A stretch of DNA of 32,000 nt from Candidatus Poseidoniaceae archaeon (GTDB lineage Archaea; Thermoplasmatota; Poseidoniia; Poseidoniales; Poseidoniaceae): the NCBI GenBank assembly GCA_943789275.1, contig CALSTM010000002.1, forward strand, positions 746,493 through 778,492. The letters are read 5' to 3'. A program made the translations under genes and the position numbers. Shown in pieces: positions 1-29,743 of this stretch (its first letter is position 1; every line of letters begins with the position of its first letter). The notes beneath the pieces were generated by a model. That model ran no database searches, was not told where the DNA came from, and saw only the letters and a program-made list of their open reading frames with translations.

Positions 1-157
1 TTAAGCAGACTTTTTTTTGCCCAGTAGCGAGCCATTGTTCGAGGTAAAGTGGTTTGATGGAGCCGGCTTTCATTGTAGCCATCACCGCTCCGTGTCCGAC
101 TTGAGCGGCCATTTTCCCTTTACCCATCTTCAATCCTTGATTGACGACACACACCAT
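1..157 (-). CDS. pth2: Peptidyl-tRNA hydrolase, Pth2 type, second tandem copy. Only the N-terminal 52 codons are present; the gene runs off the left edge.
   Basis: Absent from the ORF track (short and edge-truncated). My reverse-strand translation from the ATG at 155-157 is MVCVVNQGLKMGKGKMAAQVGHGAVMATMKAGSIKPLYLEQWLATGQKKVCL, still open at position 2. It carries the Pth2 N-terminal signature (LKM-GKGK-AAQ-xH-AV ... W..GQKKV). It aligns with the neighbouring full-length copy starting from that copy's Met12. Confidence 0.7.
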   Translation of the reverse strand, partial: MVCVVNQGLKMGKGKMAAQVGHGAVMATMKAGSIKPLYLEQWLATGQKKVCL

Positions 158-240
158 TTTACACGGCCCTTTCGGGTTTTGCCCGCTTGGAGAAGGAGCT
201 GTGAGTCGATGTAAAAAAGAACGTAATCCCATCACATCAC

Positions 241-615
241 CTAATACGGTTTCAAGTCCGATACAAGAGCATCAATGGCGCGACGGGGTGCTGGACCAAT
301 ACCGAGGACTGTAATCGTCCCCGGCGGAACTTCAGTGTGACCTGCATCTTTGACAAGCGTCGTCACTAGACCGGCCGCTTGTGCCTGTCCAGCAAGCCGT
401 TGAAGCGTTTCGAGGTCGTCTGCACGTAGGCAAATTTTCCTCGCCCCCCCGTTCTTCCAACGCTCAACAAGTCGGGCATGAGACTTGCGAGCATTCAACG
501 TGCAGGTTACAGCAGCGTGCGAACACTGGACGGCAAGTTTGCCTGCTGACATCTTGAGGTCTTTGCGAGCAATGAGTACCATTGATGGGTCTTCAGCCGT
601 CGATACCATGGCCAT
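241..615 (-). CDS. pth2: Peptidyl-tRNA hydrolase, archaeal/eukaryotic Pth2 type
   Basis: 124-aa ORF. MVLIARKDLKMSAGKLAVQCSHAAV ... VKDAGHTEVPPGTITVLGIGP matches the Pth2 family end to end. In-frame ATGs lie at 615, 609 and 582. Met12 (582) gives the same N-terminal spacing as the paralog at 1-157 and removes a 23-nt overlap with the upstream gene, so the true start may be 582. Confidence 0.9.
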   Translation of the reverse strand: MAMVSTAEDPSMVLIARKDLKMSAGKLAVQCSHAAVTCTLNARKSHARLVERWKNGGARKICLRADDLETLQRLAGQAQAAGLVTTLVKDAGHTEVPPGTITVLGIGPAPRRAIDALVSDLKPY

Positions 616-1252
616 TCACCACCGCAAACTCGATTTCTTCGAGCGATGGTTGCTCTTCAAGAAGATTGGAGAACCAACTGCCCATCCAGACAACAAAGGC
701 AAAATTACCTGCCATATGGAGAAGATCAAACGGTATGCCATGAAGAAGGTAGGTGGCAAATTCGACAAAGCCAATTGTACCGTCAAGTATGGAGAAAGAG
801 ACGATGATGTCAAACCATACCGCCGCTGCAAGCGATGCGAAAATTGCTCTGCGTAGATTGAGGCCCGAGGGTGTTACCAGTGAGAGTTGTGAGCCAGCGA
901 AGGCGACGCTTGCCCAACCGGCTGCTTGGAATACGGTCCACCACCCATCGCCCATGAAGAAATTCGAAATCATAGCGACAAGCACAGCAAATGCTGCCCC
1001 ACGTCGTGCCCCCAATTGAGCACCAACAAGCAAAGCAGCTACCGTAACCGGTTGGATATTTGGCAACGGTTGCATGACGACTCGAATCAAAGAAACCGAC
1101 AAAACAAGCGCTGCTAAGAAGAGCGTGTCCATGACCGGACGCTTCGTTGGCTTTGCCAAAAGCCAAAAGGCAACTCCCAGTAACGCGGCATCCAATACCA
1201 AACTCGCGAATGGAGAAAGTGTGGGGCCGTGAACACCCATTGCTTGGAACAT
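593..1252 (-). CDS. Polytopic membrane protein resembling an ECF-transporter substrate-capture (S) component
   Basis: 219 aa with about six hydrophobic helices and no soluble domain. QPLPNIQPVTVAALLVGAQLG (P-N-x-x-P-V-T after helix 2) and the C-terminal GIPFDLLHMAGNFAF resemble ECF S components and related uncharacterised families. It lies 41 nt downstream of the DUF4430 protein gene. The function call rests on resemblance only. Confidence 0.5.
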   Translation of the reverse strand: MFQAMGVHGPTLSPFASLVLDAALLGVAFWLLAKPTKRPVMDTLFLAALVLSVSLIRVVMQPLPNIQPVTVAALLVGAQLGARRGAAFAVLVAMISNFFMGDGWWTVFQAAGWASVAFAGSQLSLVTPSGLNLRRAIFASLAAAVWFDIIVSFSILDGTIGFVEFATYLLHGIPFDLLHMAGNFAFVVWMGSWFSNLLEEQPSLEEIEFAVVNGHGIDG

Positions 1253-1293
1253 AATTCAACCCAAGAGGGTGGATGATTTGAGGCTTACCTAAG

Positions 1294-2970
1294 TTATACG
1301 GGAGTCCATCGGACTATTGAGGTTGATTCAACCGCCACATTATCGACAGAAACCCGTCCTTTGGAACCGTCGACAAAGTACTCCCATCCATCGCCTTGTA
1401 CGCCGTTGATCGAAGAGATATAGATGCCAATACTCGTTTCTTCCACCGTAAGAGAACTGTTTCTTTCTTCTGCAGCAGCTCTGGTCAAGGTGTACACATT
1501 TTCGTGGCCGACCAATCCTCCAACCGCTGCTTCTTCTCCATCGAATTCAAAAATAACGATTTGAGTGCCAAGCCAAGATTCGGGCCATTCATCATTCCAG
1601 ACTTCTGTTGTTGAAGCAGGAAGGTTCTGGTCAACCGCCTGGGACCACAATTGCGATACGTCGGGAACGATGAGAAGCAAAATCAAAACAGTGAAGAGAC
1701 TCGATGTTCTCAAAAAGAGGTCCCTGTTTCCATTGAGAACAAAGATGGCTGAAGAACCGAGAAACACATAGGCTGCAAAAATGAGGCCCTGAGTTGACCA
1801 ATCAAAATCCTTTGAAAGTTCAGTTTCCTCGGCCTGAGCCAATTGATACAGGTGAAGAACAGATTGGTCGTTACCAAATGCGGTATAATTTACTCCGCCC
1901 GATACGAACCACAGTGGAGCGGCGGTCCCGTAACCGTAGATGCCTACATCGATGAATTCAAACGTCAAATTTTGGCCATCTTCAAAAATAAACGAGCCCC
2001 AGTTGGAATCGGGAGTATTGGATGGAGCGATGATTTGACCGTCGTGATGCCAACCAATTTCACCGTTCGTGTGGAACGGTATTTGGCTTTCAACCGAACA
2101 CGTATCGTTACAACTTAGCATTCTTAGATTTTCTGAATCTGCTACCACCACATATTGCCCTTGCAAAGAGGGGAGAGCTGGAGAGGGTCCTGCGAGAAAT
2201 TGTTGCCGTTGTTGACCGCTTTCAGGGTCGAGAATAAAGATTGTACTGTCCATAGGAGATTGGACATGAACAAGCAGTCCCGCAGAAGTAAGGAGGGGAG
2301 CGTGACGTATTTTTCCCTGGAAGCTTGCCAGAGCCGTCGCATTTCCGTTAGCGTGAACCTGCCATAACGTACCAAGTTCATCTCCAGAATACATGGAGTC
2401 GCCGTAAATACTCACGCCGTTCCTCCAACCAAGGCCTGTTTCGACCCACCAATCTTGCGAACCATCTGCAAGGCAGAATTGTCCAATGCCTCGCCGCGTC
2501 GGATAGATAACGTGGTCTTGCGAAACGCTTGCAGCGCCGGTGATGCCCCAGCCTGCAACTTCAGTTTGAGCAGTCCAGTACACACTTCCGTTGCTCGGAT
2601 GTAAAGCATTGATGACGCCATCGGTCCAACCGACAAGGAGAAGATCCGGCCAGGCTCCACATGCTCCCTCGCCAGATTTCACCGGCAACAACGGTGACAT
2701 GTCGTTGTTTTTGGAATGAACATTGGAGTATTTCCACGCTAAAGTCCCGTCAAGTTCCAAAGCAGTAACCGACGGTTCTGAATGTCCAGAAGTGCGAACG
2801 ATAATTTTCTCATCGACGAAAATCGGTGATGTGGAAATATATCCTGCTCCAAAATCATATTCCCAAGCCCGTGAATTTTCTTGGTTCCAAGACGATTCAA
2901 CCGCATCGGCGGTGACGAGTGGCAACAGCATGATGCTGAGGAAAAGGAACGCTATCAAGCGCTGAATCAT
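1294..2970 (-). CDS. Exported PQQ-like beta-propeller protein with two TM helices and a C-terminal DUF4430 (transcobalamin-like C-terminal) domain
   Basis: Signal peptide MIQRLIAFLFLSIMLLPLVTADA. Repeated propeller-blade motifs follow (DGTLAWKY, NGSVYWTAQ, DGSQDWWVE, GTLWQV). There are two TM segments (GLIFAAYVFLGSSAIFVL and LFTVLILLLIVP). The C-terminus, IVIFEFDGEE..VYTLTRAAAEE..GIYISSINGVQGDGWEYFVDGSKGRVSVDNVAVESTSIVRW, fits the DUF4430 pattern (g.fv.sIng....gW.y.vng......v.dgd.i.W). The ORF track starts at GTG 2979, which overlaps the gatE stop; the first ATG is at 2970. Confidence 0.75.
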   Translation of the reverse strand: MIQRLIAFLFLSIMLLPLVTADAVESSWNQENSRAWEYDFGAGYISTSPIFVDEKIIVRTSGHSEPSVTALELDGTLAWKYSNVHSKNNDMSPLLPVKSGEGACGAWPDLLLVGWTDGVINALHPSNGSVYWTAQTEVAGWGITGAASVSQDHVIYPTRRGIGQFCLADGSQDWWVETGLGWRNGVSIYGDSMYSGDELGTLWQVHANGNATALASFQGKIRHAPLLTSAGLLVHVQSPMDSTIFILDPESGQQRQQFLAGPSPALPSLQGQYVVVADSENLRMLSCNDTCSVESQIPFHTNGEIGWHHDGQIIAPSNTPDSNWGSFIFEDGQNLTFEFIDVGIYGYGTAAPLWFVSGGVNYTAFGNDQSVLHLYQLAQAEETELSKDFDWSTQGLIFAAYVFLGSSAIFVLNGNRDLFLRTSSLFTVLILLLIVPDVSQLWSQAVDQNLPASTTEVWNDEWPESWLGTQIVIFEFDGEEAAVGGLVGHENVYTLTRAAAEERNSSLTVEETSIGIYISSINGVQGDGWEYFVDGSKGRVSVDNVAVESTSIVRWTPV

Positions 2971-2975
2971 GACAA

Positions 2976-5006
2976 TCACTCCGAGAGGTTTTGAATCGCT
3001 TGGCGAAGAAGGGCGCTGACGACTTTCCCATCTGCTGCCCCAACTGCTTGCATCACCACGCCCATAAGAGGACCCATAGCACCCATTCCACGCTCTTTGA
3101 CAAAGTCTGCTCGTTCAGCCACAATTCCTTCGATAATGGCGCCTAAGTCCCCGGCATCCGCTGGTTTGAAGCCGTTTGCTTCACCGAAGTCAGCGATCTC
3201 TTGATTGCTTGGTGAAGCACCAGCAAAGTGTTCAATGATGTCGTTCATTGATTCCCGTGTGAGGAGCCCTTCTTCTTTGACTGCCAGTACTTTAGCACAT
3301 AATTCTGGGTCAGCAGTATCGTTCTCTAAAACTACGCTTGCCCAACCCTTGTGGGGTAAACCGTTGGCATGGTCGACAAAGATGTCGTCCAATTCACGTG
3401 CAAGCAACTGACTTGCTTGGTCGCCTGAAACTTCAAACTTCGATAATCGTTCACGGCGTTCATCGTCTGTCATCGGTAAGGATTCAAGAATTTCTTGCCA
3501 ACGTTGATCTGTTAGGGAGAAGACTGGGACGTCGGTCTCTGGATACATTCGAGCCCCTCCCGGCAATGGACGCATCGGGGAGGTAGTGCCGTCCTCAGGT
3601 GCACCCTTTTTGACAACCACATTTCGGACTTCCTGTGCAGTTCTATGCCATGCTTTTCGAGCTCTGGTCAAGACGCTCTCAAGTGCAAGTTCTGCTTGCC
3701 ACTGTGGGGCAAGACAGAGAATGAAACCGTCTGCGGGAGAAAGTGAGAGGTGTTGACGAACCAAATCGACGTGTTCTGTTTCAATGCCATACGCTGGTAG
3801 TTCGTCCGAGTGAAAAACACCTTTGACGCCAGCAAGTTTCGCAGCACCCGCTAATTCTCGGCCAAGCCTTGGCATCTGTGCGCCTTCCTTATCCAATGTT
3901 TTAGAGCCGATTTTTCCGGCAAGGCCAGCAAGAGGTAAAGCGAGCATGGTGAATCCATTGGCTAAGCCGGTCTTGACCATTTTTGATTCGCATGAGGTAA
4001 AGCACTCGCTGGTATCTTCCAAAACAAGAGGGAGATGTGCTGCAACGGCCTTGGCGACCTCCGTTTCGACCACTGAATCATCGCTTCGGCGGTCGGGAGG
4101 AAGCGCTGGCAAGGACAAATCGCTGCGCAATTGGTTGGCCAGTCTGTAGAAGTGGAGTTGCCGGGACATTTCCAGACGGATAATTCGCGGAATCCATGAA
4201 AGATCTTGACAACCTTTGATTTCAACACGGTCGCCGCATGCTAAAGAGACGTTCAGGTCTTGACGAATACTACCGAGTCCGCGACGAACTCTACGCGTCT
4301 GTCGTAGACAGCGTCCAAGCGCCATCGATGTTTCCTTTGCATGCTCTGGAGATACGACATCTGGAGATGTTGCAATTTCAATCAAAGGCAAACCAAGTCG
4401 GTCGAGGTTGTAGATGACTTGTTCTCCATTTGAAGTCGACAACGTATCGAGTTTACGAGCACTGTCTTCTTCTAAGCACAAGACATCGACCCCAACTGGA
4501 CCTGTTTCGGTTTCAAGAACCCCGTCGACTGAAATGAGCGAGGTTCTTTGAAATCCACTGGTGTTTGAGCCATCGACGACAGTCTTACGCATCGTTTGTA
4601 GCAGTGAAACAGGTTTCGCTTTAAGCAATGCCGAAACCGTGAGGGCGATTTCAACAGCATCTCTGTCGTGCGGTAGGGGTGGTTGCTCATCCAACTCGAT
4701 TAATCCAGAATTTGGCGATTGAACGTAAACAAATGAACGGTTTCGGCGAGATTCAAAACGAGCAGCAATATCGATTGCGCCACCCTCGCCACGAGCCGCT
4801 CGCAAGCGTCGCTGGAAGCGAGTCCACTGCTCTGGTACGGTGTCAATGGTGACGTCGTAAAGTACGCCAGGTTGGCGGGAATGAAGTTTGCCGGTCGCAA
4901 GTTGTTGGTGAACCTCAATACCACACATGAAGCCTAATTCTGATGGATTGAGCGCATTGGCATCCTCGACATCACCGACTGGTTCTGTGCGAATTGGGCC
5001 GGCCAT
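2976..5006 (-). CDS. gatE: Glutamyl-tRNA(Gln) amidotransferase subunit E (archaeal GatE)
   Basis: 676 aa. The N-terminal GIEVHQQLATGKL core is GatB/E-like, the large internal insertion is typical of GatE, and the C-terminal YqeY/GatB-type tail reads GAMGPLMGVVMQAVGAADGKVVSALLRQ. The length excludes GatB. No gatD lies in this window. Confidence 0.85.
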   Translation of the reverse strand: MAGPIRTEPVGDVEDANALNPSELGFMCGIEVHQQLATGKLHSRQPGVLYDVTIDTVPEQWTRFQRRLRAARGEGGAIDIAARFESRRNRSFVYVQSPNSGLIELDEQPPLPHDRDAVEIALTVSALLKAKPVSLLQTMRKTVVDGSNTSGFQRTSLISVDGVLETETGPVGVDVLCLEEDSARKLDTLSTSNGEQVIYNLDRLGLPLIEIATSPDVVSPEHAKETSMALGRCLRQTRRVRRGLGSIRQDLNVSLACGDRVEIKGCQDLSWIPRIIRLEMSRQLHFYRLANQLRSDLSLPALPPDRRSDDSVVETEVAKAVAAHLPLVLEDTSECFTSCESKMVKTGLANGFTMLALPLAGLAGKIGSKTLDKEGAQMPRLGRELAGAAKLAGVKGVFHSDELPAYGIETEHVDLVRQHLSLSPADGFILCLAPQWQAELALESVLTRARKAWHRTAQEVRNVVVKKGAPEDGTTSPMRPLPGGARMYPETDVPVFSLTDQRWQEILESLPMTDDERRERLSKFEVSGDQASQLLARELDDIFVDHANGLPHKGWASVVLENDTADPELCAKVLAVKEEGLLTRESMNDIIEHFAGASPSNQEIADFGEANGFKPADAGDLGAIIEGIVAERADFVKERGMGAMGPLMGVVMQAVGAADGKVVSALLRQAIQNLSE

Positions 5007-5075
5007 GCTTCAGCGGAGGCGTTCATCCTTCAAGACTACAACCCTTCACTTGGCACGAAGCATCAGTTTGAAATC

Positions 5076-8042
5076 TCAGTCAACTCGGGTTCGACCTACA
5101 AATGCCGATGCAGAGAGTATGCCCAACATGGTAAGAGCGACACTAAGGCTCGGGAGAGAATCCGCATCGGGTTCAATGGGTTCAGGTTCCACGACGAGGT
5201 TTTCCTCGCATGGAATCCAGTGACCGTCAATTCCTGGCTCTCCAGCTCCGGTAATTCCACCGGCTTCAGAGATGTAAAGCAATCCAGAATTTGCTGGCCA
5301 TTCGACGACATAGTTGCCAGAATAGAAGGAGATCGTATCATCCCATACGGGCTGTCCATTTGCCACCCATGTGGTCTTACAAGGGCAAGCATATGGCGTC
5401 CAAAATTCGTAGGCTTGGTCTTCGCCAGGTGCAGTTGAGACCATACCATTTGGATCAACTTGAGTCACCTGATAATACATGCCTGAGTTGGCTGGATATT
5501 GGTAAATATCACCAACAGAAACCATAGTTGTACTGTTCCAAACACCTGAGGTAGTAATTCCTTCACAAGGCCCTGGACTTGGACCGGTTCCATCACAGAG
5601 AACCCAGTGTGTATCAACACCTGGTTCTCCTGCGCCAATGCTCACACCTAATGATTCCAAAGGTATGTACAAATTACCAGAACCTGCAGGATGTTCGACA
5701 ACATAGTTTCCTGCATAAGCAGTATTGGCAACCCATGCAGGTTGTCCGTTTGCTACCCAAGTTTCCTTACATGGACAGTCAATTGGTGACCAAACATCCA
5801 TATCGATATCTGGGGCACTTACATTCCAGAATGGACTCCCAGCATTGACTTGGTAATAGATTCCCGAATCGACAGGGTATTCGTAAATTTCACCGGAAGT
5901 GACGTTCATAGAAGAATCCCAAACGCCTACAACATTGAGACCGGCACACGGATTTCCTGAAGGTTCTTGGCCATCACAGAGAACCCAGTGTGTATCAACA
6001 CCTGGTTCTCCTGCGCCAATGCTCACACCTAATGATTCCAAAGGCATGTACAAATTACCAGAACCTGCAGGATGTTCGACAACATAGTTTCCTGGGTAAG
6101 CAGTATTCGCCATCCATGCAGGTTGTCCGTTTGCTACCCAAGTTTCTTTGCATGGGCAGTCAATTGGTGACCAGACATCCATATCGATATCTGGGGCACT
6201 TACATTCCAGAAAGGACTTCCGGCATTGACTTGGTAATAGGTTCCCGAATTAACAGGGTATTCGTAAATTTCACCGGATGTAACGTTCATTGAAGAATCC
6301 CAAACGCCAACTATGGTGAGACCGGCACACGGAGTTCCATTTGCCGGTTCATCTGACTCGCTGCAGAGAATCCAATGGATATCAATTCCCGGTTCGCCGC
6401 CATTAGCGGAGATTCCTGTTGCGTCTGTTGTGACATAAAGATGCCCGGAGCCTGCAGGCCATTCAACCACGTCGCTTCCTAAGTAGGATGTATTTGCTGT
6501 CCATACCGGCTCTCCGTTGTCCATCCATGTTTCTTCACATGGGCAATCAACTGGAGCCCAAACATCCAAATCGATGAGAGGAGAAGAAACGTCTTGGTCT
6601 ACATATCCCTGGATTACAACTTCGTAATAATTCTGTGAACCTGCTGGATACTCGTATACTTCACCGGTTGAAACTCTACTTATATCGTCCCATACGCCTG
6701 CTGAGGTTGTGCCACCACAAGGGCCGCCTGTGGGTTGTTCTCCACCACAAACCTCCCATTGATTGCCGTCAGCAAACGCTTGGTCTGGAGTCACACCTGT
6801 GGTGGTTTGGCTAACAATCGCCATCCAAATATCGCCTGTTCCTGCTGGATACTCGACAAGAGCACCAACAGTGTAAACTGTGTTCGAATCCCATACTGGA
6901 TTCAAGGCTGCTTCCCAAATGTCTTTACAACTGCAACTATCTTTCGACCATGATTGGAAATCAGAACCTGGTGCTCCGACTGTTTGGTTGGAAAATCCAG
7001 GGGCTACTGCATGGAAGACTCCGGAACCTGCTGGGAATTCGTAAATCTCCCCTGTTGTAACAAGGGTAGAGTTCATCCAAGGCATACCTCCGTAGCCATT
7101 CAAATCTTCACAGAGATTACCGCTTGGCTGTAGTCCATCACAACTTCTCCATAGATAGTCATCAGAGCCACCTGGTTCAACTCCGGCACCATGATCGTAT
7201 GAGATGTAGAGGTTATTGGATCCTGCAGGCCATTCGACGACTGCCTGTTGAAGATAATTCATTGTCGAATCCCACACAGGTTGTCCGCTGTCATGCCAGA
7301 TGTCTTTACAATCACAATAGTCTTCTTCCCATGCATCTAAATCGACACCCGGTTCTCCTACTGTTTGATTATTGACAGTGGAGGAAGATACCATATAGAA
7401 ATTACCTGAATTTGCTGGGAATTCATAGATGTCTCCTGACGACACTAATGTTGTATTCCCCCATACACTCGGAGCCATTCCAATCAATTCATCACATGAT
7501 GAAGAATCTTCATGAGTGCACTGAACCCAAAGGTCATTGCCTACAAATGGTTCTGCTTGTGGTTCACCTGCAACGGTTCCGGCATCCTGTGCAATCCAAA
7601 CACTACCGTTGTGTTCAACGATTTGCCATGCACTGTAAGAGAAATTATAATTCCATTGTATCCCGCTTTCTTCAGCAATTTCTAAACATGAGCAAGGTCC
7701 TCTCCATTTGCTATTTGGAGTTGGTTCTCCTGTTATGCTGCTGGTGGTGCTTTGCCAAAATTGGCCTGAGTTTGCTGGCCATTCGACAATGTCATCGGCC
7801 GCATAGGTACTCGCGTTGTCCCATAAAGGACCGCCCATCCCGTCGCTGATACCTATGAAATTACAATTTGACACAGTGGAATTATTTCCATTCATTCCAT
7901 TGCTTTGCCGTCCTGCAAAGTTTACATTTTCATCGGTATTTTCTTCAAAACCGTTGTTCTTATCTTCAAATATATCAATTCCTGAAAGAGAGACTTGTAA
8001 AGTAAGTAAAGCCACAACCATCAAACATATCGCATTCCGCAT
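5076..8042 (-). CDS. Large exported modular repeat protein (putative adhesin) with CxC plus aromatic CBM5/12-like repeats and a C-terminal TM anchor
   Basis: 988 aa. N-terminal signal/anchor MRNAICLMVVALLTLQVSLSG. It has seven to eight modules of about 127 aa. Each contains GEIYE(F/Y)PAGSG.(F/Y)Y and C-x-C-K-(D/E)-(I/T)-W-x4-G-x-P-(V/A)-W-x3-T-x-Y-x4-VVE(W/H)PAGSG.LY. The W...Y..G..V.(Y/W)P...(Y/W) spacing resembles carbohydrate-binding module 5/12. The C-terminus is EPEPIEPDADSLPSLSVALTMLGILSASAFVGRTRVD (TM plus basic tail). Confidence 0.85.
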   Translation of the reverse strand: MRNAICLMVVALLTLQVSLSGIDIFEDKNNGFEENTDENVNFAGRQSNGMNGNNSTVSNCNFIGISDGMGGPLWDNASTYAADDIVEWPANSGQFWQSTTSSITGEPTPNSKWRGPCSCLEIAEESGIQWNYNFSYSAWQIVEHNGSVWIAQDAGTVAGEPQAEPFVGNDLWVQCTHEDSSSCDELIGMAPSVWGNTTLVSSGDIYEFPANSGNFYMVSSSTVNNQTVGEPGVDLDAWEEDYCDCKDIWHDSGQPVWDSTMNYLQQAVVEWPAGSNNLYISYDHGAGVEPGGSDDYLWRSCDGLQPSGNLCEDLNGYGGMPWMNSTLVTTGEIYEFPAGSGVFHAVAPGFSNQTVGAPGSDFQSWSKDSCSCKDIWEAALNPVWDSNTVYTVGALVEYPAGTGDIWMAIVSQTTTGVTPDQAFADGNQWEVCGGEQPTGGPCGGTTSAGVWDDISRVSTGEVYEYPAGSQNYYEVVIQGYVDQDVSSPLIDLDVWAPVDCPCEETWMDNGEPVWTANTSYLGSDVVEWPAGSGHLYVTTDATGISANGGEPGIDIHWILCSESDEPANGTPCAGLTIVGVWDSSMNVTSGEIYEYPVNSGTYYQVNAGSPFWNVSAPDIDMDVWSPIDCPCKETWVANGQPAWMANTAYPGNYVVEHPAGSGNLYMPLESLGVSIGAGEPGVDTHWVLCDGQEPSGNPCAGLNVVGVWDSSMNVTSGEIYEYPVDSGIYYQVNAGSPFWNVSAPDIDMDVWSPIDCPCKETWVANGQPAWVANTAYAGNYVVEHPAGSGNLYIPLESLGVSIGAGEPGVDTHWVLCDGTGPSPGPCEGITTSGVWNSTTMVSVGDIYQYPANSGMYYQVTQVDPNGMVSTAPGEDQAYEFWTPYACPCKTTWVANGQPVWDDTISFYSGNYVVEWPANSGLLYISEAGGITGAGEPGIDGHWIPCEENLVVEPEPIEPDADSLPSLSVALTMLGILSASAFVGRTRVD
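5568..6329. repeat. Near-identical tandem duplication, 2 x 381 bp (127 codons), inside the adhesin gene
   Basis: Protein residues 572-698 and 699-825 align without gaps at 116/127 identical by my hand alignment (CAGLTIVGVWDSSMNVTSGEIYEYPVNSG... versus CAGLNVVGVWDSSMNVTSGEIYEYPVDSG...). The antisense ORFs 5579-5848 and 5990-6229 show the same near-identity, so it holds at the DNA level. Copy boundaries are 5568-5948 and 5949-6329. Confidence 0.9.
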
Positions 8043-8209: not shown

Positions 8210-10327
8210 TTATGCAATTTGGAGTGTGTCGTAGCCAGAGGGTCGAAGCATGCGCCCATGTTGGCACAACTTCTCAATAACATCTTCAGCAGTAGAGCGG
8301 TCAATATCGTATCGTTCTGCTTCGTTAAACACATCAAGCAATTGTGCAACGCCACCGTTGTTGGCTGAAAGCGAAGCAACGATTTCCATAATTGCCTTCT
8401 CGCGATTTCGTGTTTTGCCCTTCTTTCCAGTGACCATTGTGGTTTCATCAAAATTGCCACCCATGAGATCTTCGCGCCAGAGACGGGTCATTCGAACTGC
8501 CCGTTCTGCGTCTTCAAGAGTGGCAACCTGTGACAAACGGATACGGGCGCTGGCTTCTGCTAATCGTGCAAGAGCCTCGAGAGAACGCGCAGTGATGGCC
8601 ACGCTGTCATTTGAGTCGCCCGTTTGTTTACGGGTTTCGACGTAAAAATTGACGATTGTATCGCGTGCAGCTTGTTCCAAATGTGGATGGATTGTACGTT
8701 TCGAGTATGCAATGTATTTGCGGATGAGGTCTCGTGAAAGCACTTCGCCATGCTCTGATTTTTCAACTCCAGAGAGCGAGGTCGATTTGGTAGGATCCGG
8801 TGCGCTGCCTTCGCTAACGAGTAATTCGCTGACGCCTTGCAAACGATTGCCGATGATATGTTGGGCGATTTTCGCATCCTTTTCGACTTCAGGGTCATCG
8901 GTCAAGAGCCAAATGATATCAAACCGAGATACAAGCGGGGGAGCAAGATTGATTTGAGCGGTGAAGGGAACTTCTGAGACCGGCTCGAAACGGCCGTTTT
9001 TCGGATTTGCTGCAGCCAAAACCGCACACCGTGTCCTCAAACTCGCGTTAATTCCTGCCTTCGAAATCGAGATTTTCTGCTGCTCCATCGCTTCGTGCAT
9101 ACTGGAACGGTCGCCTTCATTCATTTTGTCGAATTCGTCAATTGCGGCTAATCCAAGGTCAGCCAAAACCAATGCTCCTGCTTCAAGGGTCCATCGTCCA
9201 TCTGCTGCTGCATCTTGAACTGCTGCTGCAGTCAAACCTGCCGCTGATGCTGATTGTCCGGAAGTAAAGCGACCACGAGGTGAAATAGTTGACATATAAC
9301 TCAAGAGTTGAGATTTCGCAACCCCCGGGTCACCCATCAGTAAAATGTGAATGTCGCCTCGATTGCGCGTACCATCGGAATTGAGTCTGGCTACACCTCC
9401 AAATAATTGTAACATCAGTGATTGTTTAACGGGATTCATTCCGAAAATCGAAGGAGCGATGCTCTTGGTAAACAATTCGTAAATATCTGGGCGTCTTGCA
9501 AGTTCTTTAATTTCCAATTCTTCATCTTCAGTGATTACAATTTCTTCAAGAGGTATGTTCTGTCTTTCAAGAGAATGTATGCGCAAGAAAATATCGAACA
9601 CGGGAGTATCTTTTCCGCCTTTTCTCTGGGAACGGATGAATAAAACGCCGTTGCCTTTCACTCGGTCTCCCGGATTGAGTTTACCAGCCAAATCATGTTC
9701 AGCAATACAGATAATACGTTCCGGTTGAATTCCGCCCTTCATCTGTTCAGGCAGTTCTTGTAATTCGATGAATTGTGAATTAATGAGAATTGAGTCTTTC
9801 TGATTGAGCTCAAATCGGGTTTGGCGCTTGGCTCGGCCGCAACCTCCGTCCAGTTGTTGGCATTCAATTGGTTCGATCAATTCTTGCTCATTGGGTTGGT
9901 TGACAACCATCGAGTGACCGCAAGCGACGCACTCGAAGGTGGCTGCATAAATACGTGGGCGGACACCAGAGATTTTGGTTGTAACAGCATCGATAGCCAA
10001 CATCATTCCAATGTCATCTGCACGCAATTGAGAAACGGTTCGGACTTGGTCCACGGGCAGGTGAGCGATTCGGACGAAAGGATACATCGTCGTATGCCCA
10101 GCGTCCATGAGGAACTGGCGAAGCGCTTGATTGGATGCGTGGAAATGAAGTTCGGGGTGCTGAACAATGTCGTGTGCGAACTCGTGGTCAAATCCTTCGA
10201 TAACGCGGTAAGAAACTTCCAAAGATTGTTCATCGGGCCACATCTGTGCGAGGTTGTGGACGGATTCTGCAAAGTGGTCTTGAATCAAGGATGTCCAACG
10301 TGCAGGTAGGTCGAATTCTTGGAGCAT
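8210..10327 (-). CDS. mcm: Minichromosome maintenance (MCM) replicative helicase
   Basis: Zn motif CVACGH...C....GGCG; Walker A GDPGVAKSQLL; Walker B AAIDEFDKM; arginine finger SRFDIIW; C-terminal winged-helix-like tail. The ORF track extends to a GTG at 10429, adding 34 aa. The first ATG (10327, MLQEFDLPARW...) gives a typical archaeal length of about 705 aa. No intein. Confidence 0.93.
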   Translation of the reverse strand: MLQEFDLPARWTSLIQDHFAESVHNLAQMWPDEQSLEVSYRVIEGFDHEFAHDIVQHPELHFHASNQALRQFLMDAGHTTMYPFVRIAHLPVDQVRTVSQLRADDIGMMLAIDAVTTKISGVRPRIYAATFECVACGHSMVVNQPNEQELIEPIECQQLDGGCGRAKRQTRFELNQKDSILINSQFIELQELPEQMKGGIQPERIICIAEHDLAGKLNPGDRVKGNGVLFIRSQRKGGKDTPVFDIFLRIHSLERQNIPLEEIVITEDEELEIKELARRPDIYELFTKSIAPSIFGMNPVKQSLMLQLFGGVARLNSDGTRNRGDIHILLMGDPGVAKSQLLSYMSTISPRGRFTSGQSASAAGLTAAAVQDAAADGRWTLEAGALVLADLGLAAIDEFDKMNEGDRSSMHEAMEQQKISISKAGINASLRTRCAVLAAANPKNGRFEPVSEVPFTAQINLAPPLVSRFDIIWLLTDDPEVEKDAKIAQHIIGNRLQGVSELLVSEGSAPDPTKSTSLSGVEKSEHGEVLSRDLIRKYIAYSKRTIHPHLEQAARDTIVNFYVETRKQTGDSNDSVAITARSLEALARLAEASARIRLSQVATLEDAERAVRMTRLWREDLMGGNFDETTMVTGKKGKTRNREKAIMEIVASLSANNGGVAQLLDVFNEAERYDIDRSTAEDVIEKLCQHGRMLRPSGYDTLQIA

Positions 10328-12750: not shown

Positions 12751-14805
12751 TCACTCGGTTGATTCTTCAGCGTCTGCCGCTGGTTCATCAGCCGATTCTT
12801 CTTGAGGAGGAGCAGCCTCGAATGCCTTTTCTGCATCTTCTTCACCCATCATCTTGACACCGAGGCCAAGACAGGCGATTGCACCAATCAAGAGAAGTGG
12901 CGCAAGGAAGTCAGTAGGGACGTCGAAGTTTGTCCAGTAGGTCAGTGCCTTCTGGTTCGTAGTGACGCTTGATGCAAGGTCCTCAGCATCTGCATCCCCA
13001 ATCTCTGAACTGGATGTAATCATGAACACAGCTTGCAAGTGACTTGCGTTAGGAGCGGTGTGTTGGTCGGTGATTGGGCGCATGTCCAACCAGAAAGTCG
13101 ATTCCGAAGAACCGGCGATGATGGCTCCACTCAGTTGCTCTGCTTGGAGAGAAACTTCGCTACCGAAGTAGACCGGTAGAGCACCTGGCAATGCATCAAG
13201 CAAGGTATCTGTATCGAGGAGCTTGGCTTGAATTGGGCGTTCCAATGGGTCAAGTGATGCTGAACAATCATCGACAGCGATGTCTTTCAAAGTCGAAGTG
13301 CCATCGCAAGTAATGGCTGCTGTTGCGTATCCTGAAAGGTCGACCATGTCACCAGAGCCCGTCAAGAATCCGCCGGTTGTTCCTGTTCGGGATTCTGCGG
13401 TAATGAGGCCGAGGGTGTTCACCGTCTTTGCAGGGTCTTTCCATGCGAAGTAGGAGCTGCCGTCAACGGCCATCATTTCGCCCTTATCACAGGTCGAGAC
13501 TTCACCGGTACAGATCATGTAATCTGTTCCAGTGTCACTGACAATTCCGCCAGAGCCGTAGAACGTTGCGTTGGATTCAAGGCTGGTCCATCCAACGGTC
13601 ATGTCCATTGGATTTCCACTTGCAAGGAAAGCAGATACTGGATCGTGCCATCCGAGCAACCAATTGTTGAACTCTTGAGTCAGGTATGGAGTGGTTCCAA
13701 AAGAACTCATCAAGAAGCCTGGTACGAAATCGGCAAAGATTGGTGAAGAAACAAAGAGACTCATTGCTTCAGCGGTGTTTTCGTCAACACCATACAAGAG
13801 GCCAATCGTGCTTGCATTCCACGTCATTGGAGCAGCAGGCTCCATGGTCATCAAGTTCACAGGCGGGGTCATACCGCTTAGTTCACCGTACAAGAACAAG
13901 GTTGCTCCAGTCGAAGTTGTCAATCCGAGTGGGCCATAGAGCATGTTTCCGGCTTGTGCCTGGGTGATGGAAACTGGAGTTGCATCAGCGTGTCCTGGAA
14001 TCATTCCAGCACCCCATGCGCCACCCATGTTGAGGGAGTTGGTGAGGTAAGGGTCGCCAACAGGACTCATGCCACCAAAGGTTTGGTTGACAAATTGCTC
14101 AGCGTTCATTGTGCCTACGCCACCAAGAAGACCCAGTTGAACCGAAGTGGCTGAGGTTGCCCATCCGCCGGCCCAAGTAGCCACTGCGGTGTATTGCTCA
14201 ACGGTGAGGTTGAAGGCAGCCATAGCGTCAGGGACTTCCATGGTAAGGAAAGCAGCAAGGCCGAATCCTGTTCCGTCAGCGTTGGTTGCAATCAATCCAG
14301 TAGGTGTATCGGTGAGGTGTCCGGCAACCATGAGGGAAATGCCGTTTGCACCAGTAAAGTCGGCACCGAGAAGGTTGTGAAGTCGGCTGGTGATGTCGTC
14401 GTTGTTTGTAGCGTTGAAGTCTGCACCGCCGCCGTAGCCGGCGAAACTTGTTCCAACTGCTGCATACATGGTCCAGTCTCGAACGAATGTTTCGTAAGGG
14501 TCTGCGGTTGCGTATCGATACAATCCTGCTCGTTGCATGACCGTTGAGTTCGCTGGATCTGCTAACACATCAGCCAGCATTACTTCAGGTTCTCCCATTC
14601 CCATGAATGCCACAACACCTATTGGATCCATGAGAGACATGTTGAATTCCGAGTCAGCAGGCGAGGAAGTGTTTTCCATTGCGTTGTCCAAATCTCCGGA
14701 TGACCAGTTTCCATTTGTGTTCGATAAATTGTGACCTGCTTGTTGCATTCGCAGCCATAATGCCCATTCCGGTTTCAGAGGCTTTCCATTCGCTTTCAGC
14801 GCCAT
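12751..14805 (-). CDS. CD36/LIMP-2/SR-B family-like surface protein, C-terminal fragment (ectodomain, C-terminal TM and acidic tail); appears to be one gene with 14654-15535
   Basis: 684-aa ORF with no signal peptide of its own. The reading frame stays open upstream to 14841. It contains LTQEFNNWLLGWHDPVSAFL and LPVYFGSEV...STFWLDMRPITDQH...LQAVF, which line up with CD36-family blocks. It ends in the TM segment FLAPLLLIGAIACLGLGV and the tail EEDAEKAFEAAPPQEESADEPAADAEESTE. Confidence 0.8.
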   Translation of the reverse strand: MALKANGKPLKPEWALWLRMQQAGHNLSNTNGNWSSGDLDNAMENTSSPADSEFNMSLMDPIGVVAFMGMGEPEVMLADVLADPANSTVMQRAGLYRYATADPYETFVRDWTMYAAVGTSFAGYGGGADFNATNNDDITSRLHNLLGADFTGANGISLMVAGHLTDTPTGLIATNADGTGFGLAAFLTMEVPDAMAAFNLTVEQYTAVATWAGGWATSATSVQLGLLGGVGTMNAEQFVNQTFGGMSPVGDPYLTNSLNMGGAWGAGMIPGHADATPVSITQAQAGNMLYGPLGLTTSTGATLFLYGELSGMTPPVNLMTMEPAAPMTWNASTIGLLYGVDENTAEAMSLFVSSPIFADFVPGFLMSSFGTTPYLTQEFNNWLLGWHDPVSAFLASGNPMDMTVGWTSLESNATFYGSGGIVSDTGTDYMICTGEVSTCDKGEMMAVDGSSYFAWKDPAKTVNTLGLITAESRTGTTGGFLTGSGDMVDLSGYATAAITCDGTSTLKDIAVDDCSASLDPLERPIQAKLLDTDTLLDALPGALPVYFGSEVSLQAEQLSGAIIAGSSESTFWLDMRPITDQHTAPNASHLQAVFMITSSSEIGDADAEDLASSVTTNQKALTYWTNFDVPTDFLAPLLLIGAIACLGLGVKMMGEEDAEKAFEAAPPQEESADEPAADAEESTE

Positions 14806-15460
14806 TGGCCCAAAGGTGGCAAGGTATTCCTTGTTGCATAGTTACGTTTAAGACTTCGACTTCCATTGTGCAGAGGTCACCAGTTGTGGCAGTTCCTGCT
14901 TGTGTGGTGTTCATGTCTTGGTTGATCATTTGTGCAGCGAATCCAACCTTAGTGAGGTCCATGATTCCGTTGATGGCCATTCCGGTTGCACCGATGACTT
15001 GCGGGGTGAAACCGATGTTCAATTGCGTGATTTCAACATCACAAGGAACGACGGTGTCCACAGAACAGGCATAGGATGTGTTCTCGTGGTAGGTGATGGT
15101 ACCTGCAGTTGAATCACGAGAAACAAATGTTCGGTCTGAGGTGATGGTGTAGGTTACAGGTCCAATCTTTTCGTGGGTTGGGGCTGTTCCATTGGCCATG
15201 ACGTCGTCAAGATTCGTTACGGTCCAGCCGTAAAAATCTCGGTCGGCGGTTGAAGTTACCCAATCGGATTCAAGTTCAGTACAGTCGTCATTGGCACAAA
15301 TATTGTCCAAAGGCGTGGTCTTTGTTGCTTCCAGTACAGCGTCTTCAACACCACCGGTAGAGAGCACGGAAAGGCCTCCACTCAGCAGTATGAACACAAG
15401 TCCTGCAGCTAGCATCGTTTTGTCTGTCATCATCGACATAAAGAGCGAACGCAAATCCAT
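14654..15460 (-). CDS. CD36/LIMP-2/SR-B family-like surface protein, N-terminal fragment (N-terminal TM plus first ectodomain blocks)
   Basis: TM segment MLAAGLVFILLSGGLSVL, then ESDWVTSTADRDFYGWTVTNLDDVMANGTAPTHEKIGPVTYT. The last 60 or so codons (GIPCHLWANG...RRFGQRNGKHFLAC) look like out-of-frame read-through. The ORF track starts at TTG 15535. ATGs lie at 15502, 15460 and 15439, and a TATA-like GAATATAC at about 15490-15497 favours 15460. Confidence 0.7.
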   Translation of the reverse strand: MDLRSLFMSMMTDKTMLAAGLVFILLSGGLSVLSTGGVEDAVLEATKTTPLDNICANDDCTELESDWVTSTADRDFYGWTVTNLDDVMANGTAPTHEKIGPVTYTITSDRTFVSRDSTAGTITYHENTSYACSVDTVVPCDVEITQLNIGFTPQVIGATGMAINGIMDLTKVGFAAQMINQDMNTTQAGTATTGDLCTMEVEVLNVTMQQGIPCHLWANGAESEWKASETGMGIMAANATSRSQFIEHKWKLVIRRFGQRNGKHFLAC

Positions 15461-15572
15461 AGCACATAAGTGTTGGCGAGAACACCTAGTATATTCGGCC
15501 ATATCCCTTTGATTCACCAAGAGCCAAGCATCCAATCGGTGCGGTCATCAAGTTGAAGCCGTACCGAGCATC

Positions 15573-17745: not shown

Positions 17746-20700
17746 TTATTCTTCCCAAACCGCCCAGTCTTCCCAGCCTTCTTCGCGGTACCACCAAACG
17801 CCTTCTTCGTCTTCCCACCACTCAGTGCCGTTCTCATCGACTGAGATGTCGGCATCTTCGGTAGCTTCCTCGGTATTGTCTTCTGATTCAAACGCTTCTT
17901 CGTGGACATATTCTTCGGTAGCTCCACGGCCATCAACTTCGTCAAACAACGTGCGACGGCGTTCTTCGGGTGGATCTCCGGCAGTGAATTCATCACCTGA
18001 ACTCCGAATCTCATCAAGGCTGCGACTTGAACGAGGAGCTGGAGTCGGTGCTGAATCTTCGGTTTCGTCGAGTTCGTCAAATGCTTCGAACCAATCATCG
18101 TCCTCTTCAGTTCGAGAGCGAAGGAGTACCAAAGCAATACCGACGCCAGCTAAAACGAGAATGGCTATGATTCCGCCAACAAGAGCGCCTGAGCCACCCT
18201 CCGTACTGTCTTTGGTCGTATCTCCGTTGCCCGAATCAGGGATAACGATTGGTTCGCTCAATGTCCACTGGAGTTCACCCACGGTTGTGGCAGAAGGCGT
18301 AGTCATCTCAGTGCAGCGGCCTGTACCGTCATCCAAACACGTTAAGATCAATTGATAGCCAACGCCTTGTAATCCAGGGAACAATCCATCGGATGGACCG
18401 TTTCGTATTGGGGTAAACGTGACTTCAACGGTTTCATTGGCGTTTAATGTAAGGGGTGGCCCCGAACTGGGCAGAGAGTCGGTCTCAAAAGAGAGCGGGC
18501 CGGGTGTGGCCGAGTTTTCGGTCCATGCAAAGTCGACTTGTACTTCAAATGGATTTGGGTTGCTCACTGTACAAGTAATCGATGAATCCGTCGAGTTCTC
18601 TTCCCAAGCATAGGTTGCTGCTTCGCAAGAAAATGTGCCTGCGAGGGTAACATCAGGGAAAACAGGATTTTCGGTCTGATTATCGGTTTGATTCGTCGTT
18701 TGATTTTCGGTATTGTTCACTGTTTGATTCACCGCATGACCGGCAAACGAAAACGAGTAGGTTTCCGGGGTTACTGAAAACCAGCCTTGCCCTTGGGATG
18801 GAGTGAAACTGAGCGTACCATGGGCGTCGGAAATCCCTGTAAGCGAAACTTTCCCACCTTTGACTTCTACAGTTCCGTTTTCAATGATATTGCCCGTCTC
18901 ATTGCTAAGGTGCCAATCGTATCCCACGTTTGCTAATACTGAAGATTGTGAAGGCAGTTCAGGTGTAATCGATGCCTCGACTGAATAGTGGCCTGTCTCG
19001 TTCAACTGTACTGGTTCGGAAGAGTGTGAGACTGTAGCCCTAAGCACACCCATTCCCGAGAAGGTAACGGATGATACGTCAGCCGGCTGAATCGTTGCTG
19101 AACCTGCTGTTCCCGCGTATTCTACAGAGATGGTTGCCTGACCAAGGAACTCTGAAAACGATGCCGAGAGTTCTGTTAAATCGTCGACAGATACAGCGTG
19201 CCATACGCCGTTTTCGTCGGTTGTGCCCTGCATTGAATAAACGAAATCTCCGGCTTCAAACATCATCGACAGGTCCTGGGATTCAAGACCTGCTCCTTCA
19301 CTGGTGAGTGCCGCTGTGACATTCAATGAATCAAGAGCGCTCATCTCGAAGAACGTTGCGTTGTACGTGCCTGAAGATGAAAGACTGAGGGTTAATTGCG
19401 ATTGCCGGAGCGAATTGTTCAATGTATGAACTGGACCAACCGATGAAAACTGTTCCGAAGTATTACCGTATTCGTCATAAGCCACGACAGCGATCCAATA
19501 GTCCGTACGATCGACCAGCGGAGTACCGTCGCCGGTGGTTGTAATGTTCATGGAAAAGGAGCCAGGCGTTGAAGATGAATTCGTGATTGCGAACTCAGTG
19601 AGGTTATCCAAAGTTAGAATTTCAAACGCTTCGACAAAGACCCTGTATTCGGAAGGTGCATCGAAAGACGCATTCCAACCCAAATCAAACGAGCTTCCGT
19701 TATCGTCTGGGGTATCGACGACTGACAGGCCTTGTACCGCAGAAGGTGGAGCTGGGTAAGGAATTGTAACGGAAAGGCGAGCTGAGAGATTGCTGGTCAC
19801 TCCGTAGAGGTGCAACGAGCGAACAACATAATCATAAGAGTCGCCGGGGGCAAAATTTGGGTCTATGGTCGAGTTTATCTCGGTGGTGAAAGTCGGGTTG
19901 TTGAGGTCCAAAACGCCCCCAGAAACGACTCTAAACACTTCAAATTCTATGAAACCATCACCAAATTCAATCTCGTCTTGCCATGAGAAGGACACCATTT
20001 CATGCGTCAGGATTTCCAGTTGCAAAACAGGTGCAGGCGGTAAAGCGAGATTTGGTGCACCGGGGATGTAATCGGCACTGAGGTCTGAAGCATACAAACT
20101 GCCGTTCTTGGTAGAGGTGAACGGTAAATCAATGACAATTGTGCCGCTGCCGGCTGTTTGAAGTTGATTGATGATGTTGGTGAGGTTCCCTTGTGCTGCA
20201 GGATTGTTCTCAACGATGAAGTCGATATCGTAGCCAATGTCCAACGAACTCATGTTGAAAGTGCCATGGCCCGTACTGGTGAAATCAAGCAGGAGAGATG
20301 CCATTTCAATGTCGTAATCCATCAATTGTGACGATTGTGCAGTGAGTTGGAGCACCAGTAAATTTTTCAAAAGGCCGAGGTCGTCGATAATCGAAAGTGG
20401 ACTTGTACCCAATACGTTATCGCCAGCATAACCTTCAGCAGTCAAGTCGTTCTGCCCGTCAAGGTCAATGTCAACGCCAATCGATTCCCATGAACCGATG
20501 AACAAACCAAACACCGTATCTTCGCCTGCTGAAACAACATGCTCCATCTGTCCGTCACCGTTCAAATCTATGAACAAGGAATCAGTGGGACAGGTCCACG
20601 GCTCAAGTGCGTCCATGGTGGCGTTAATTGAAGACAATGTGATGTTGTACATGGTTAGGTTCCCATCTAAGGTTTGAGCGTTGCCGTCCGGTGAATCAAA

Positions 20701-28624: not shown

Positions 28625-29037
28625 CGTGATAAATGTTCATCGAGGTCTATTAGAGTGATTTTGTTCATGTTTTGTAATTTGAAATAATGATGCCCTTTTC
28701 CATTACTAATTTTTGAATCAATGATAGGCAGGTCTGAGATGTCCAACTCAGAACGAATTAATGCTTCCGTGAGGCATCTTAAATCGAAAAATTTGGTTTG
28801 ATTGAATGCACCGAAATTCATCCCATGGGCATGTTCATTCAATGCTGCGACCAATACTACACGGTTCATTTCTGAATAAGCGGAAACTCGGCATTCAAAA
28901 TCTTCATCGCCAATATCTAGTTCGTGCATAAGAATTCTAAAACGCCCAAGTTGAAGATGTTTATGTGAAATGTAAGCAATAATCAGTTTGTTAGACAATC
29001 CACGTGGTTTTTCACTTAACCGATTGTAGACAAGCAA
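28594..29037 (-). CDS. Hypothetical protein (ORFan, AT-rich island)
   Basis: 147-aa ORF starting at TTG; the first ATG would give 111 aa (MHELDIGDEDFECRV...). No recognisable family. Coding status rests on ORF length within about 30% G+C DNA, where long ORFs are unlikely by chance. Confidence 0.5.
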   Translation of the reverse strand: MLVYNRLSEKPRGLSNKLIIAYISHKHLQLGRFRILMHELDIGDEDFECRVSAYSEMNRVVLVAALNEHAHGMNFGAFNQTKFFDLRCLTEALIRSELDISDLPIIDSKISNGKGHHYFKLQNMNKITLIDLDEHLSRYIVNSTEEE

Positions 29038-29107
29038 TATTGTTCACAAAGATTTGAGCATAGGCCTTTGAATGAATTTTAAATGATTAAATCGACTAAA
29101 GATTGAA

Positions 29108-29743
29108 TTAATCGAACATTTCATGTATTTCGTCAAGAGAATGTCCTTTAATTCTCATATCGAACGTGAATTTAGGTTGATGTAATCTTCTGGTATATCT
29201 TCCCTCTCTTGTCAATGCAAGTTCATGGTACCTATGGAACAGTTCTTTTTCAGTTTCGAGATTGCAGTATAGTGACGCATAATTAAGTGCTGCTAATATT
29301 ATATTATTATTGATGAAATTAGATAGACCATGATTCTGATTCATAATAAAAGAAGGCCAAGTTAATTCACCATTCAACACCGAATCAAGCCAAGTCCATG
29401 GATTCATCTTCAATTTGGGGTGCTTTTTATGTCTAGAAACGGCGACATTCATGGCTTGACTAATCATATGTTCACAGAGTTCTAATATGGGTTGTTCGTT
29501 ACTTCCAGCACTTTGAAGAATTTGATTTATTTTCTCTAAATCTAGTATTTCATTCAATAAAGGAATATATTTTGAAAATTCCTCGCCTTCAAACCTAATT
29601 ATTCTTTGTAGAACCACAAACCCCGGAGTTCTAGATTTCAGCGGTATTTTAACCATTTCGTTAAGATAGGATTCTACGTGATGTAATGAACCTGAAAATA
29701 GTTTAAGATAGAATTCAATGGGTTGTTCATTTCCATCCTCCAT
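29108..29743 (-). CDS. Hypothetical, probably all-alpha protein (ORFan, AT-rich island)
   Basis: 211 aa from the first ATG (MEDGNEQPIEFYLKLF...). The track start at 29758 is GTG. A TATA-like CTATAATTAAA (29768-29778) lies about 30 nt upstream of the ATG. No recognisable family. Confidence 0.55.
   Translation of the reverse strand: MEDGNEQPIEFYLKLFSGSLHHVESYLNEMVKIPLKSRTPGFVVLQRIIRFEGEEFSKYIPLLNEILDLEKINQILQSAGSNEQPILELCEHMISQAMNVAVSRHKKHPKLKMNPWTWLDSVLNGELTWPSFIMNQNHGLSNFINNNIILAALNYASLYCNLETEKELFHRYHELALTREGRYTRRLHQPKFTFDMRIKGHSLDEIHEMFD

Follow-up and report, generated by a model that had tools for sequence, protein, structure and literature searches.

The stretch of DNA analysed here, 32,000 nucleotides (nt) of a Candidatus Poseidoniaceae genome (contig CALSTM010000002.1; hereafter the window), carries near its beginning two adjacent genes on the minus strand, designated gene A and gene B. 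This pair is most likely the Marine Group II counterpart of the bacterial cbrS-cbrT gene pair, and probably encodes a module for the uptake of corrinoids (vitamin B12 or cobinamide). Gene A encodes a protein of 561 amino acids (aa) composed of a beta-propeller, a transmembrane hairpin and a C-terminal DUF4430 domain, and gene B encodes a membrane protein homologous to CbrT, the substrate-binding S-component of an energy-coupling factor (ECF) transporter. The two genes on the same strand, the 561-aa protein and the 41-nt gap had been recorded in a first-pass annotation of the same DNA, and these coordinates were reproduced exactly. The genes were taken from the list of open reading frames, and the parts of their products were located as follows.

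593-1252, minus strand: gene B, 219 aa
596-658, minus strand: acidic C-terminal tail of gene B (aa 199-219), Poseidoniales-specific and absent from bacterial CbrT
659-1144, minus strand: six-helix S-component core of gene B (aa 37-198), aligned to CbrT residues 6-158
1157-1213, minus strand: extra N-terminal transmembrane helix of gene B (aa 14-32), from alignment and model
1253-1293, no strand: intergenic spacer between genes A and B, 41 nt
1294-2979, minus strand: gene A, 561 aa, GTG start
1297-1563, minus strand: DUF4430 domain of gene A (aa about 473-561), predicted transcobalamin beta-domain fold, CbrS-like
1564-1641, minus strand: juxtamembrane linker of gene A, with the W-x3-W-x3-W triad W461, W465 and W469, then T472-Q473
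1642-1794, minus strand: two-helix transmembrane hairpin of gene A (aa about 396-446), from hydropathy
1804-2898, minus strand: PQQ/BamB-like (PQQ, pyrroloquinoline quinone) beta-propeller of gene A (aa about 28-392), from profile matches
2905-2979, minus strand: signal peptide or signal anchor of gene A (aa 1 to about 25, with ...LPLVTADA/VESS at its end), from hydropathy

The product of gene B had been described as a six-helix membrane protein resembling an ECF S-component. It scored 40.9 bits against DUF6580 (PF20221), for which the cut-off is 27, and stayed below threshold on ECF_trnsprt of Pfam; DUF6580 was matched by all 25 Poseidoniales homologues of gene B (25/25). When the protein was compared with all PDB chains by phmmer, the only significant match was 6FNP_A (CbrT) at an E-value of 2e-14, the next being at chance level (E 0.96). 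A profile constructed from Poseidoniales gene B sequences only gave 6FNP_A as the sole match (E 2.3e-19), and no other S-component, BtuM included, was found with this profile at E <= 10. The 6FNP structure is ECF-CbrT of Lactobacillus delbrueckii, for which transport of both cobalamin and cobinamide was shown experimentally (PMC5997447). The matched chain of 182 aa is the S-component, and a near-identical database entry carries PF12822. In the joint alignment, 14 columns were invariant across the archaeal and Lactobacillales sequences, namely R57, four within PN(V/I)QPVT (P64, N65, Q67 and T70), the five of G101-x-G103-x-W105-T106-x2-Q109, and F165, Y168, D176 and H179; the motifs shared in this alignment were PN(V/I)QPVT, GxGxWTxxQ and an FDxxHxxGN-like sequence.

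The AlphaFold2 model of gene B, with a predicted local distance difference test (pLDDT) value of 86.7, consisted of a six-helix core, an N-terminal transmembrane helix and an acidic tail. The N-terminal helix, modelled with pLDDT 90-96 and followed by a positively charged loop (KPTKRP), is not present in bacterial CbrT, and the alignment showed that the Poseidoniales proteins reach about 35-50 aa beyond the bacterial N-termini. The acidic tail was modelled as a helix of low confidence (pLDDT 55-59). By Foldseek, the best matches were PanT, 4HZU_S, CbiM, FolT and RibU, with probabilities of 0.66-0.99 and TM-scores of 0.44-0.60, at weak E-values of 0.17 or more. The assignment to ECF S-components and DUF6580 was confirmed and narrowed to a specifically CbrT-like protein, whereas the number of helices was revised to seven predicted transmembrane helices, the N-terminal one being extra. 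Both by homology and by modelled fold, gene B appears to be a CbrT-type S-component with a corrinoid as its predicted substrate.

The C-terminal domain of gene A had been proposed to be DUF4430 (PF14478), and this was confirmed by Pfam across the family and by the modelled fold. Against the Pfam cut-off of 23.8 bits, the whole protein scored 23.9 bits, just at the threshold, and the isolated domain scored 28.1 bits; among the family members, 30 of 32 matched DUF4430 (E <= 0.01). The AlphaFold2 model made from the family alignment reached pLDDT 89.2. The top 19 Foldseek matches of this model against the PDB, all with probability 1.0, were 3U7Z and the beta domains of transcobalamin (TC), intrinsic factor (IF) and haptocorrin (HC), and the TM-scores, when normalized to query length, were 0.56-0.65, those normalized to target length being 0.65-0.72 for isolated domains. 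After these, the matches dropped sharply to ubiquitin-like and other folds at E >= 0.15 and mostly with probability below 0.5. The beta domain of TC, IF and HC contacts cobalamin, and the top matches included the isolated human TC beta domain that was crystallised with cyanocobalamin. This isolated domain alone binds cobalamin and cobinamide (PMC5599065). 3U7Z, the structure of a Ruminococcus gnavus DUF4430 protein, was entered in the PDB under the description 'putative metal binding protein'. By hhalign, the archaeal domain matched two Firmicute CbrS proteins at E 8e-5 and 1e-3, modest but specific values, and the matches covered the motif G-x-[YF]-[IV]-x-S-I-x-G...W-x-Y-x-V-[DN]-G. The modelled fold suggests that the DUF4430 domain of gene A may bind a corrinoid.

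Gene A is related to these eukaryotic carriers only in this part. No Cobalamin_bind or prenyltransferase-like match was detected in gene A with Pfam, NCBIfam or the PDB profile search; since the alpha domain is absent, gene A is not a member of the transcobalamin family. A beta-propeller stands at the N-terminal position that the alpha6/alpha6 toroid occupies in TC, IF and HC, and gene A is predicted to be membrane-anchored, unlike these soluble carriers. Exhaustive searching with a profile of the C-terminal domain yielded 389 proteins. Among these, the long proteins of 545-713 aa whose match is C-terminal mostly carried PQQ_2, and all the named ones were from Poseidoniales; the others were either CbrS-sized (about 140 aa) or multidomain proteins of very large size. 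Outside Poseidoniales, the closest DUF4430 proteins stem for the most part from metagenome reads. On present evidence from these sequences, the propeller-DUF4430 fusion would be an invention of Poseidoniales. Two other DUF4430 proteins came to light. One is a prokaryotic protein of 592 aa (P0490), in which a prenyltransferase/squalene-cyclase-like alpha-alpha toroid is joined to DUF4430 in the same two-domain arrangement as in transcobalamin. The other is a 202-aa AraC-type helix-turn-helix regulator of Limosilactobacillus reuteri (L009, 6768-7376, minus strand) with a recorded DUF4430 match, encoded near a CbrT homologue, CobT and PduO; this location gives a hint that DUF4430 may serve as a corrinoid sensor within a transcription factor.

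The organization of the bacterial genes was then compared at seven CbrT-like loci. CbrT was reportedly named by Rodionov et al. in 2009. The gene is located within an nrdJ-cbrS-cbrT-pduO cluster in the paper describing CbrT, where the nature of CbrS is left unstated (PMC5997447). At four of the seven loci, all from Firmicutes, a small DUF4430 gene was found immediately upstream of the cbrT-like gene. The order in L. helveticus, class II ribonucleotide reductase, a 132-aa DUF4430 protein, CbrT and PduO, agrees with the published cluster, indicating that CbrS is the signal-peptide DUF4430 protein. In Pontibacillus, a 138-aa DUF4430 lipoprotein is followed by a CbrT-like gene (P0359) that matches both PF12822 and PF20221, and a cobalamin riboswitch (119.7 bits) is located directly 5' of the pair. 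Abutting DUF4430/CbrT-like pairs were also found on a metagenomic Lactobacillales-like contig and in Loigolactobacillus backii. No cobalamin riboswitch was detected at four other bacterial loci. The B12 context of the bacterial homologues includes the riboswitch in Pontibacillus and nrdJ and pduO in L. helveticus.

The archaeal and bacterial pairs share the CbrT homology of gene B with its invariant motifs, an extracytoplasmic DUF4430 domain encoded directly upstream on the same strand, and the presumed corrinoid substrate. They differ in several respects: CbrS is a small signal-peptide protein or lipoprotein of about 120-140 aa, whereas the archaeal DUF4430 domain forms the end of a 561-aa propeller-hairpin protein; gene B carries the seventh N-terminal helix and the acidic tail, and belongs to DUF6580 rather than ECF_trnsprt; and the host is an archaeon, with no ECF module, nrdJ, pduO or riboswitch near the pair. 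As judged from these sequence relationships, the archaeal pair is a homologue of cbrS-cbrT, and the pairing of these genes predates the archaeal lineage. The pair and its order are conserved in two domains of life, B12-regulated bacterial examples included. The strongest argument for cooperation of the two genes, and for a corrinoid as their substrate, is that the order of DUF4430 followed by a CbrT-like gene is common to archaea and Firmicutes despite unrelated neighbours.

Several points weigh against a role of the pair in corrinoid uptake. Gene B is only 22-29% identical to the bacterial CbrT-family proteins, its family is set apart from ECF_trnsprt in Pfam, and the specificity of S-components can switch between families. 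The profile of the gene A C-terminal domain gave only chance-level matches, and no transcobalamin, against PDB sequences; it is the Pfam model and the fold alone that reveal the kinship with transcobalamin. The adjacent small DUF4430 gene is absent at three of the seven bacterial loci. No riboswitch or B12-linked gene was found near the archaeal pair, the neighbours being housekeeping genes (GatE, Pth2 and MCM), and ECF A and T genes are absent from the window and from the 6-kb flanks of five related loci. No binding or transport measurement is known for prokaryotic DUF4430 or for any DUF6580 protein; in the searched literature DUF6580 was not mentioned, and CbrS was found once, as a name only. 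The low identity, the separate Pfam families, the missing B12 context and the deposition of 3U7Z as a metal-binding protein would also suit an uptake module for a different ligand, such as another tetrapyrrole, a cofactor or a metal, for which DUF4430 and DUF6580 would have diverged in specificity. We consider such a non-corrinoid module unlikely. Gene A, through the DUF4430/TC beta fold, and gene B, through the CbrT homology, point to B12 independently of each other; the motifs in common with CbrT are invariant, and no S-component of another specificity was matched at E <= 10; and P0359, the S-component that matches both Pfam families, is encoded next to a DUF4430 gene, with a cobalamin riboswitch preceding the two.

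Distribution of the pair was determined by scanning GTDB, with one genome per species, using the alignment of gene B and CbrT as a query, and adjacency was judged from the best 80 of 399 relatives. All of these best 80 were from Poseidoniales, including the original MG-II (Marine Group II) chromosome CM001443.1. A propeller-DUF4430 gene was located directly upstream of gene B at 77 of the 79 loci for which upstream sequence was available, and the pair was kept down to 37% identity. Co-conservation of the two genes in related genomes, which the first-pass annotation had named as a check, was borne out within Poseidoniales by this adjacency and extended by the same order in Firmicute B12 contexts. 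As far as sequence comparison can tell, the pair is a nearly universal candidate B12-uptake locus of the order.

Conservation within Poseidoniales is by itself weak evidence for a functional link, because the entire region, in the order AIRS-esterase-MCM-GatE-A-B-Pth2, is syntenic, and at two loci of Poseidoniales gene B is not preceded by gene A. Both facts, taken together with the lack of a known B12 link for the propeller, the largest part of gene A, would fit two functionally unrelated genes, gene A being a general surface protein for adhesion or a BamB-like scaffold that happens to carry a DUF4430 module, and the adjacency reflecting rigid synteny. Shared synteny cannot, however, account for the pairing of DUF4430 and CbrT-like genes at four of seven loci in remote Firmicutes with wholly different neighbours, and we regard this explanation as quite improbable. 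In two metagenome-assembled genomes (MAGs), SP339 (L081, 3995-4660) and ERR3525235_binner12_Refined_63 (L085), the CbrT-like gene and the downstream Pth2 gene were kept, and genes for phytoene desaturase, phytoene synthase and an SDR-like (short-chain dehydrogenase/reductase) protein were found where gene A is expected.

The propeller of gene A was next characterized. A total of 247 full-length homologues of gene A with 37-94% identity were found, the named ones being from Poseidoniales or Euryarchaeota MAGs. The single sequence gave weak NCBIfam matches to BamB and PQQ-dehydrogenase, and most homologues carried PQQ_2 (PF13360). With the profile of 43 family sequences, the PDB search detected the Cake designs, which are designed PQQ-like propellers, at E 3e-16, as well as quinoprotein alcohol dehydrogenases, and BamB at E 1.7e-5. 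The proposed PQQ-like propeller was thereby upheld. Identity as a PQQ-dependent dehydrogenase was rejected: the score against TIGR03075 was 27 bits at a cut-off of 480, representing partial blade-level similarity only, and scores so far under the family cut-offs indicate that the propeller is not a quinoprotein dehydrogenase. By self-comparison of the profile, internal repeats were not resolved and the blades could not be counted, the blades being too diverged. Tryptophan and cysteine as well as polar positions are invariant across the propeller, among them C107, C169, C290, C294, R62, D93, R186, N187, E201, R225, H226 and Q240. An extracytoplasmic location of the N-terminal domain is consistent with its four invariant cysteines, and the many invariant polar residues suggest the presence of a conserved site.

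Membrane topology of gene A was analysed by hydropathy. The N-terminal hydrophobic segment, MIVMIQRLIAFLFLSIMLLPLVTADA, shows a hydropathy peak of 2.39 within aa 1-30, with R7 preceding the hydrophobic core and an A-x-A-like end. The N-terminal signal-like segment previously proposed was recognized by hydropathy, whereas its cleavage is only predicted. Two further hydrophobic segments, at about aa 398-417 and 427-446 (hydropathy segments 396-417 and 419-446), are connected by the short, positively charged loop NGNRDLFLR with two arginines, an arrangement that indicates a hairpin returning the chain to the outside, in agreement with the earlier proposal. With this topology, the N-terminal domain of about 365 aa and the C-terminal domain of about 110 aa should both be located outside the cell. 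Conservation of the hairpin exceeds plain hydrophobicity, as W445 is invariant within the consensus ...PDxSxxWS. In the linker that follows, the columns of the tryptophan triad and of T472-Q473 are invariant in the family alignments of both gene A and its C-terminal domain; this segment was modelled with pLDDT about 92, and the W-x3-W-x3-W linker is peculiar to the archaeal family.

No cytoplasmic signalling domain was detected in gene A by the hydropathy and topology analysis. This result bears on yet another possibility, that gene A is a sensor, store or protector of extracellular corrinoid without delivery to gene B. The cytoplasmic loop of the hairpin is very short, so that a signalling output is not obvious, whereas retention is conceivable. 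For surface B12 binders of Bacteroides, BtuJ1 among them, a function as extracellular reservoirs has been described (bioRxiv 10.1101/2025.07.01.662609). The absence of a signalling domain and the close genetic linkage of gene A with a transporter homologue favour delivery, and a role of gene A in sensing or retention alone seems very improbable.

BtuG of Bacteroides had been cited in the first-pass annotation as a parallel to gene A. The lipoproteins BtuG, BtuH and BtuJ resemble gene A in concept, as surface proteins that capture scarce B12 for a transporter, and BtuG is also a beta-propeller. They have no detectable sequence relationship to gene A, and they serve a TonB-dependent outer-membrane transporter, a type that, to our knowledge, is not found in archaea. 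Homology of the propeller with BtuG was rejected after the gene A profile was compared with all PDB sequences and no BtuG appeared at E <= 1, as the first-pass annotation had anticipated; the comparison with BtuG is one of analogy only. BtuH was considered as a possible DUF4430 protein and rejected, since its domain is given as DUF4465 in the literature.

The following mechanism is proposed for the pair as a cbrS-cbrT-type corrinoid uptake module. Gene A would be exported and kept in the membrane by its hairpin, with the propeller and the DUF4430 domain facing outward near the membrane surface. The DUF4430 domain would take a corrinoid from seawater and hand it over to gene B, which, as a CbrT-like S-component, would then move it across the membrane. 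The two proteins may be in physical contact, possibly between the hairpin of gene A and the extra N-terminal helix of gene B, and the propeller may participate in ligand capture. Neither an ABC (ATP-binding cassette) ATPase nor an EcfT-like gene was found in the 32-kb window, in accord with the earlier remark that ECF A and T components are lacking there. The energy for transport could come from an ECF ATPase module whose genes are located elsewhere, or the S-component could act alone, as is the case for BtuM and certain BioY proteins. Should gene B function in the absence of an ECF module, solitary S-component-like transporters such as BtuM would offer a possible parallel, with the difference that BtuM is not among the matches of the gene B profile at E <= 10. 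As an extension of this mechanism, the propeller might replace the TC alpha domain and form, together with DUF4430, a two-jaw clamp of very high affinity for corrinoids, in which the membrane hairpin keeps the two domains next to each other and docks onto the extra helix of gene B, so that capture and translocation take place within one fixed complex, possibly free of an ECF ATPase. This extension is tentative and, taken as a whole, unlikely; if true, it would represent a previously undescribed archaeal means of scavenging the picomolar B12 of the open ocean.

The B12-scavenging role suggested in the first-pass annotation is thus supported by the CbrT homology, the modelled DUF4430 fold and the Firmicute pairs, and remains a prediction from sequences and models. 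The architecture had been considered uncharacterised. This is true of CbrS itself, whereas a precedent does exist in the named cbrS-cbrT pair of Lactobacillales. What is new, as far as we know, is the first archaeal cbrS-cbrT-type pair in the searched literature, together with the propeller fusion, the hairpin anchor and the seven-helix S-component.

The genes surrounding the pair are MCM, GatE, Pth2, Trm1 and PAC2; together with the named homologues of the two genes, from Poseidoniales or 'Euryarchaeota' MAGs, they identify the window as DNA of a Marine Group II archaeon. Gene A starts within the last 4 nt of the upstream GatE gene (2976-5006), in agreement with the homologues, which begin 4-8 nt past GatE, and gene B runs 23 nt into the downstream Pth2 gene (241-615). 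In related loci (L001-L005), two tandem Pth2 paralogues follow the CbrT-like gene at about 8300-9190 of those loci, of which only the first lies wholly within the window (241-615). No Rfam element was found in the spacer or within 1-5200 at gathering and permissive thresholds, and neither B12 enzymes nor riboswitches were found in the window.

Between GatE and MCM, a protein of 988 aa without Pfam match is encoded at 5076-8042 (minus strand). The protein starts with a signal-like segment, bears a hydrophobic anchor at its C-terminal end and contains many repeats of Cys/Trp-rich modules; a 381-bp tandem duplication of 93% identity is present in its gene at 5590-6338. Since MCM directly abuts GatE in five related loci of Poseidoniales, the gene seems to be a surface-protein gene inserted in a lineage-specific manner. 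Farther along the window, a 293-aa protein (14654-15535, minus strand) matched the CD36 family (PF01130, 36.7 bits; cut-off, 26.5), a mainly eukaryotic family, over profile positions 42-157 of 463 only. A 1423-aa protein (17746-22017, minus strand) with a weak FG-GAP repeat match only and a 684-aa protein (12751-14805, minus strand) without Pfam match are probably located on the cell surface. The G+C content is 0.35 at 29000-30600, compared with about 0.50 in the rest of the window, and the open reading frames 29108-29758 and 30002-30535, both on the minus strand, gave no Pfam match; this stretch may represent an island that is of foreign origin or evolves rapidly.

Marine Group II archaea, which have never been cultured, rank with the most abundant surface-ocean heterotrophs. 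Two main genomic surveys of Poseidoniales make no mention of B12, vitamins or ECF transporters. The supposition in the first-pass annotation that the host is a B12 auxotroph agrees with the literature, in which Marine Group II is so described (PMC9296465). The locus described here provides a concrete candidate route for B12 acquisition by these archaea. It also offers a testable function for DUF4430/CbrS and DUF6580, both 'domain of unknown function' families, and links the beta domain of eukaryotic transcobalamin to prokaryotic B12 transport. If the proposed function is true, it would help to interpret B12 limitation experiments and could guide attempts at cultivation of Marine Group II.

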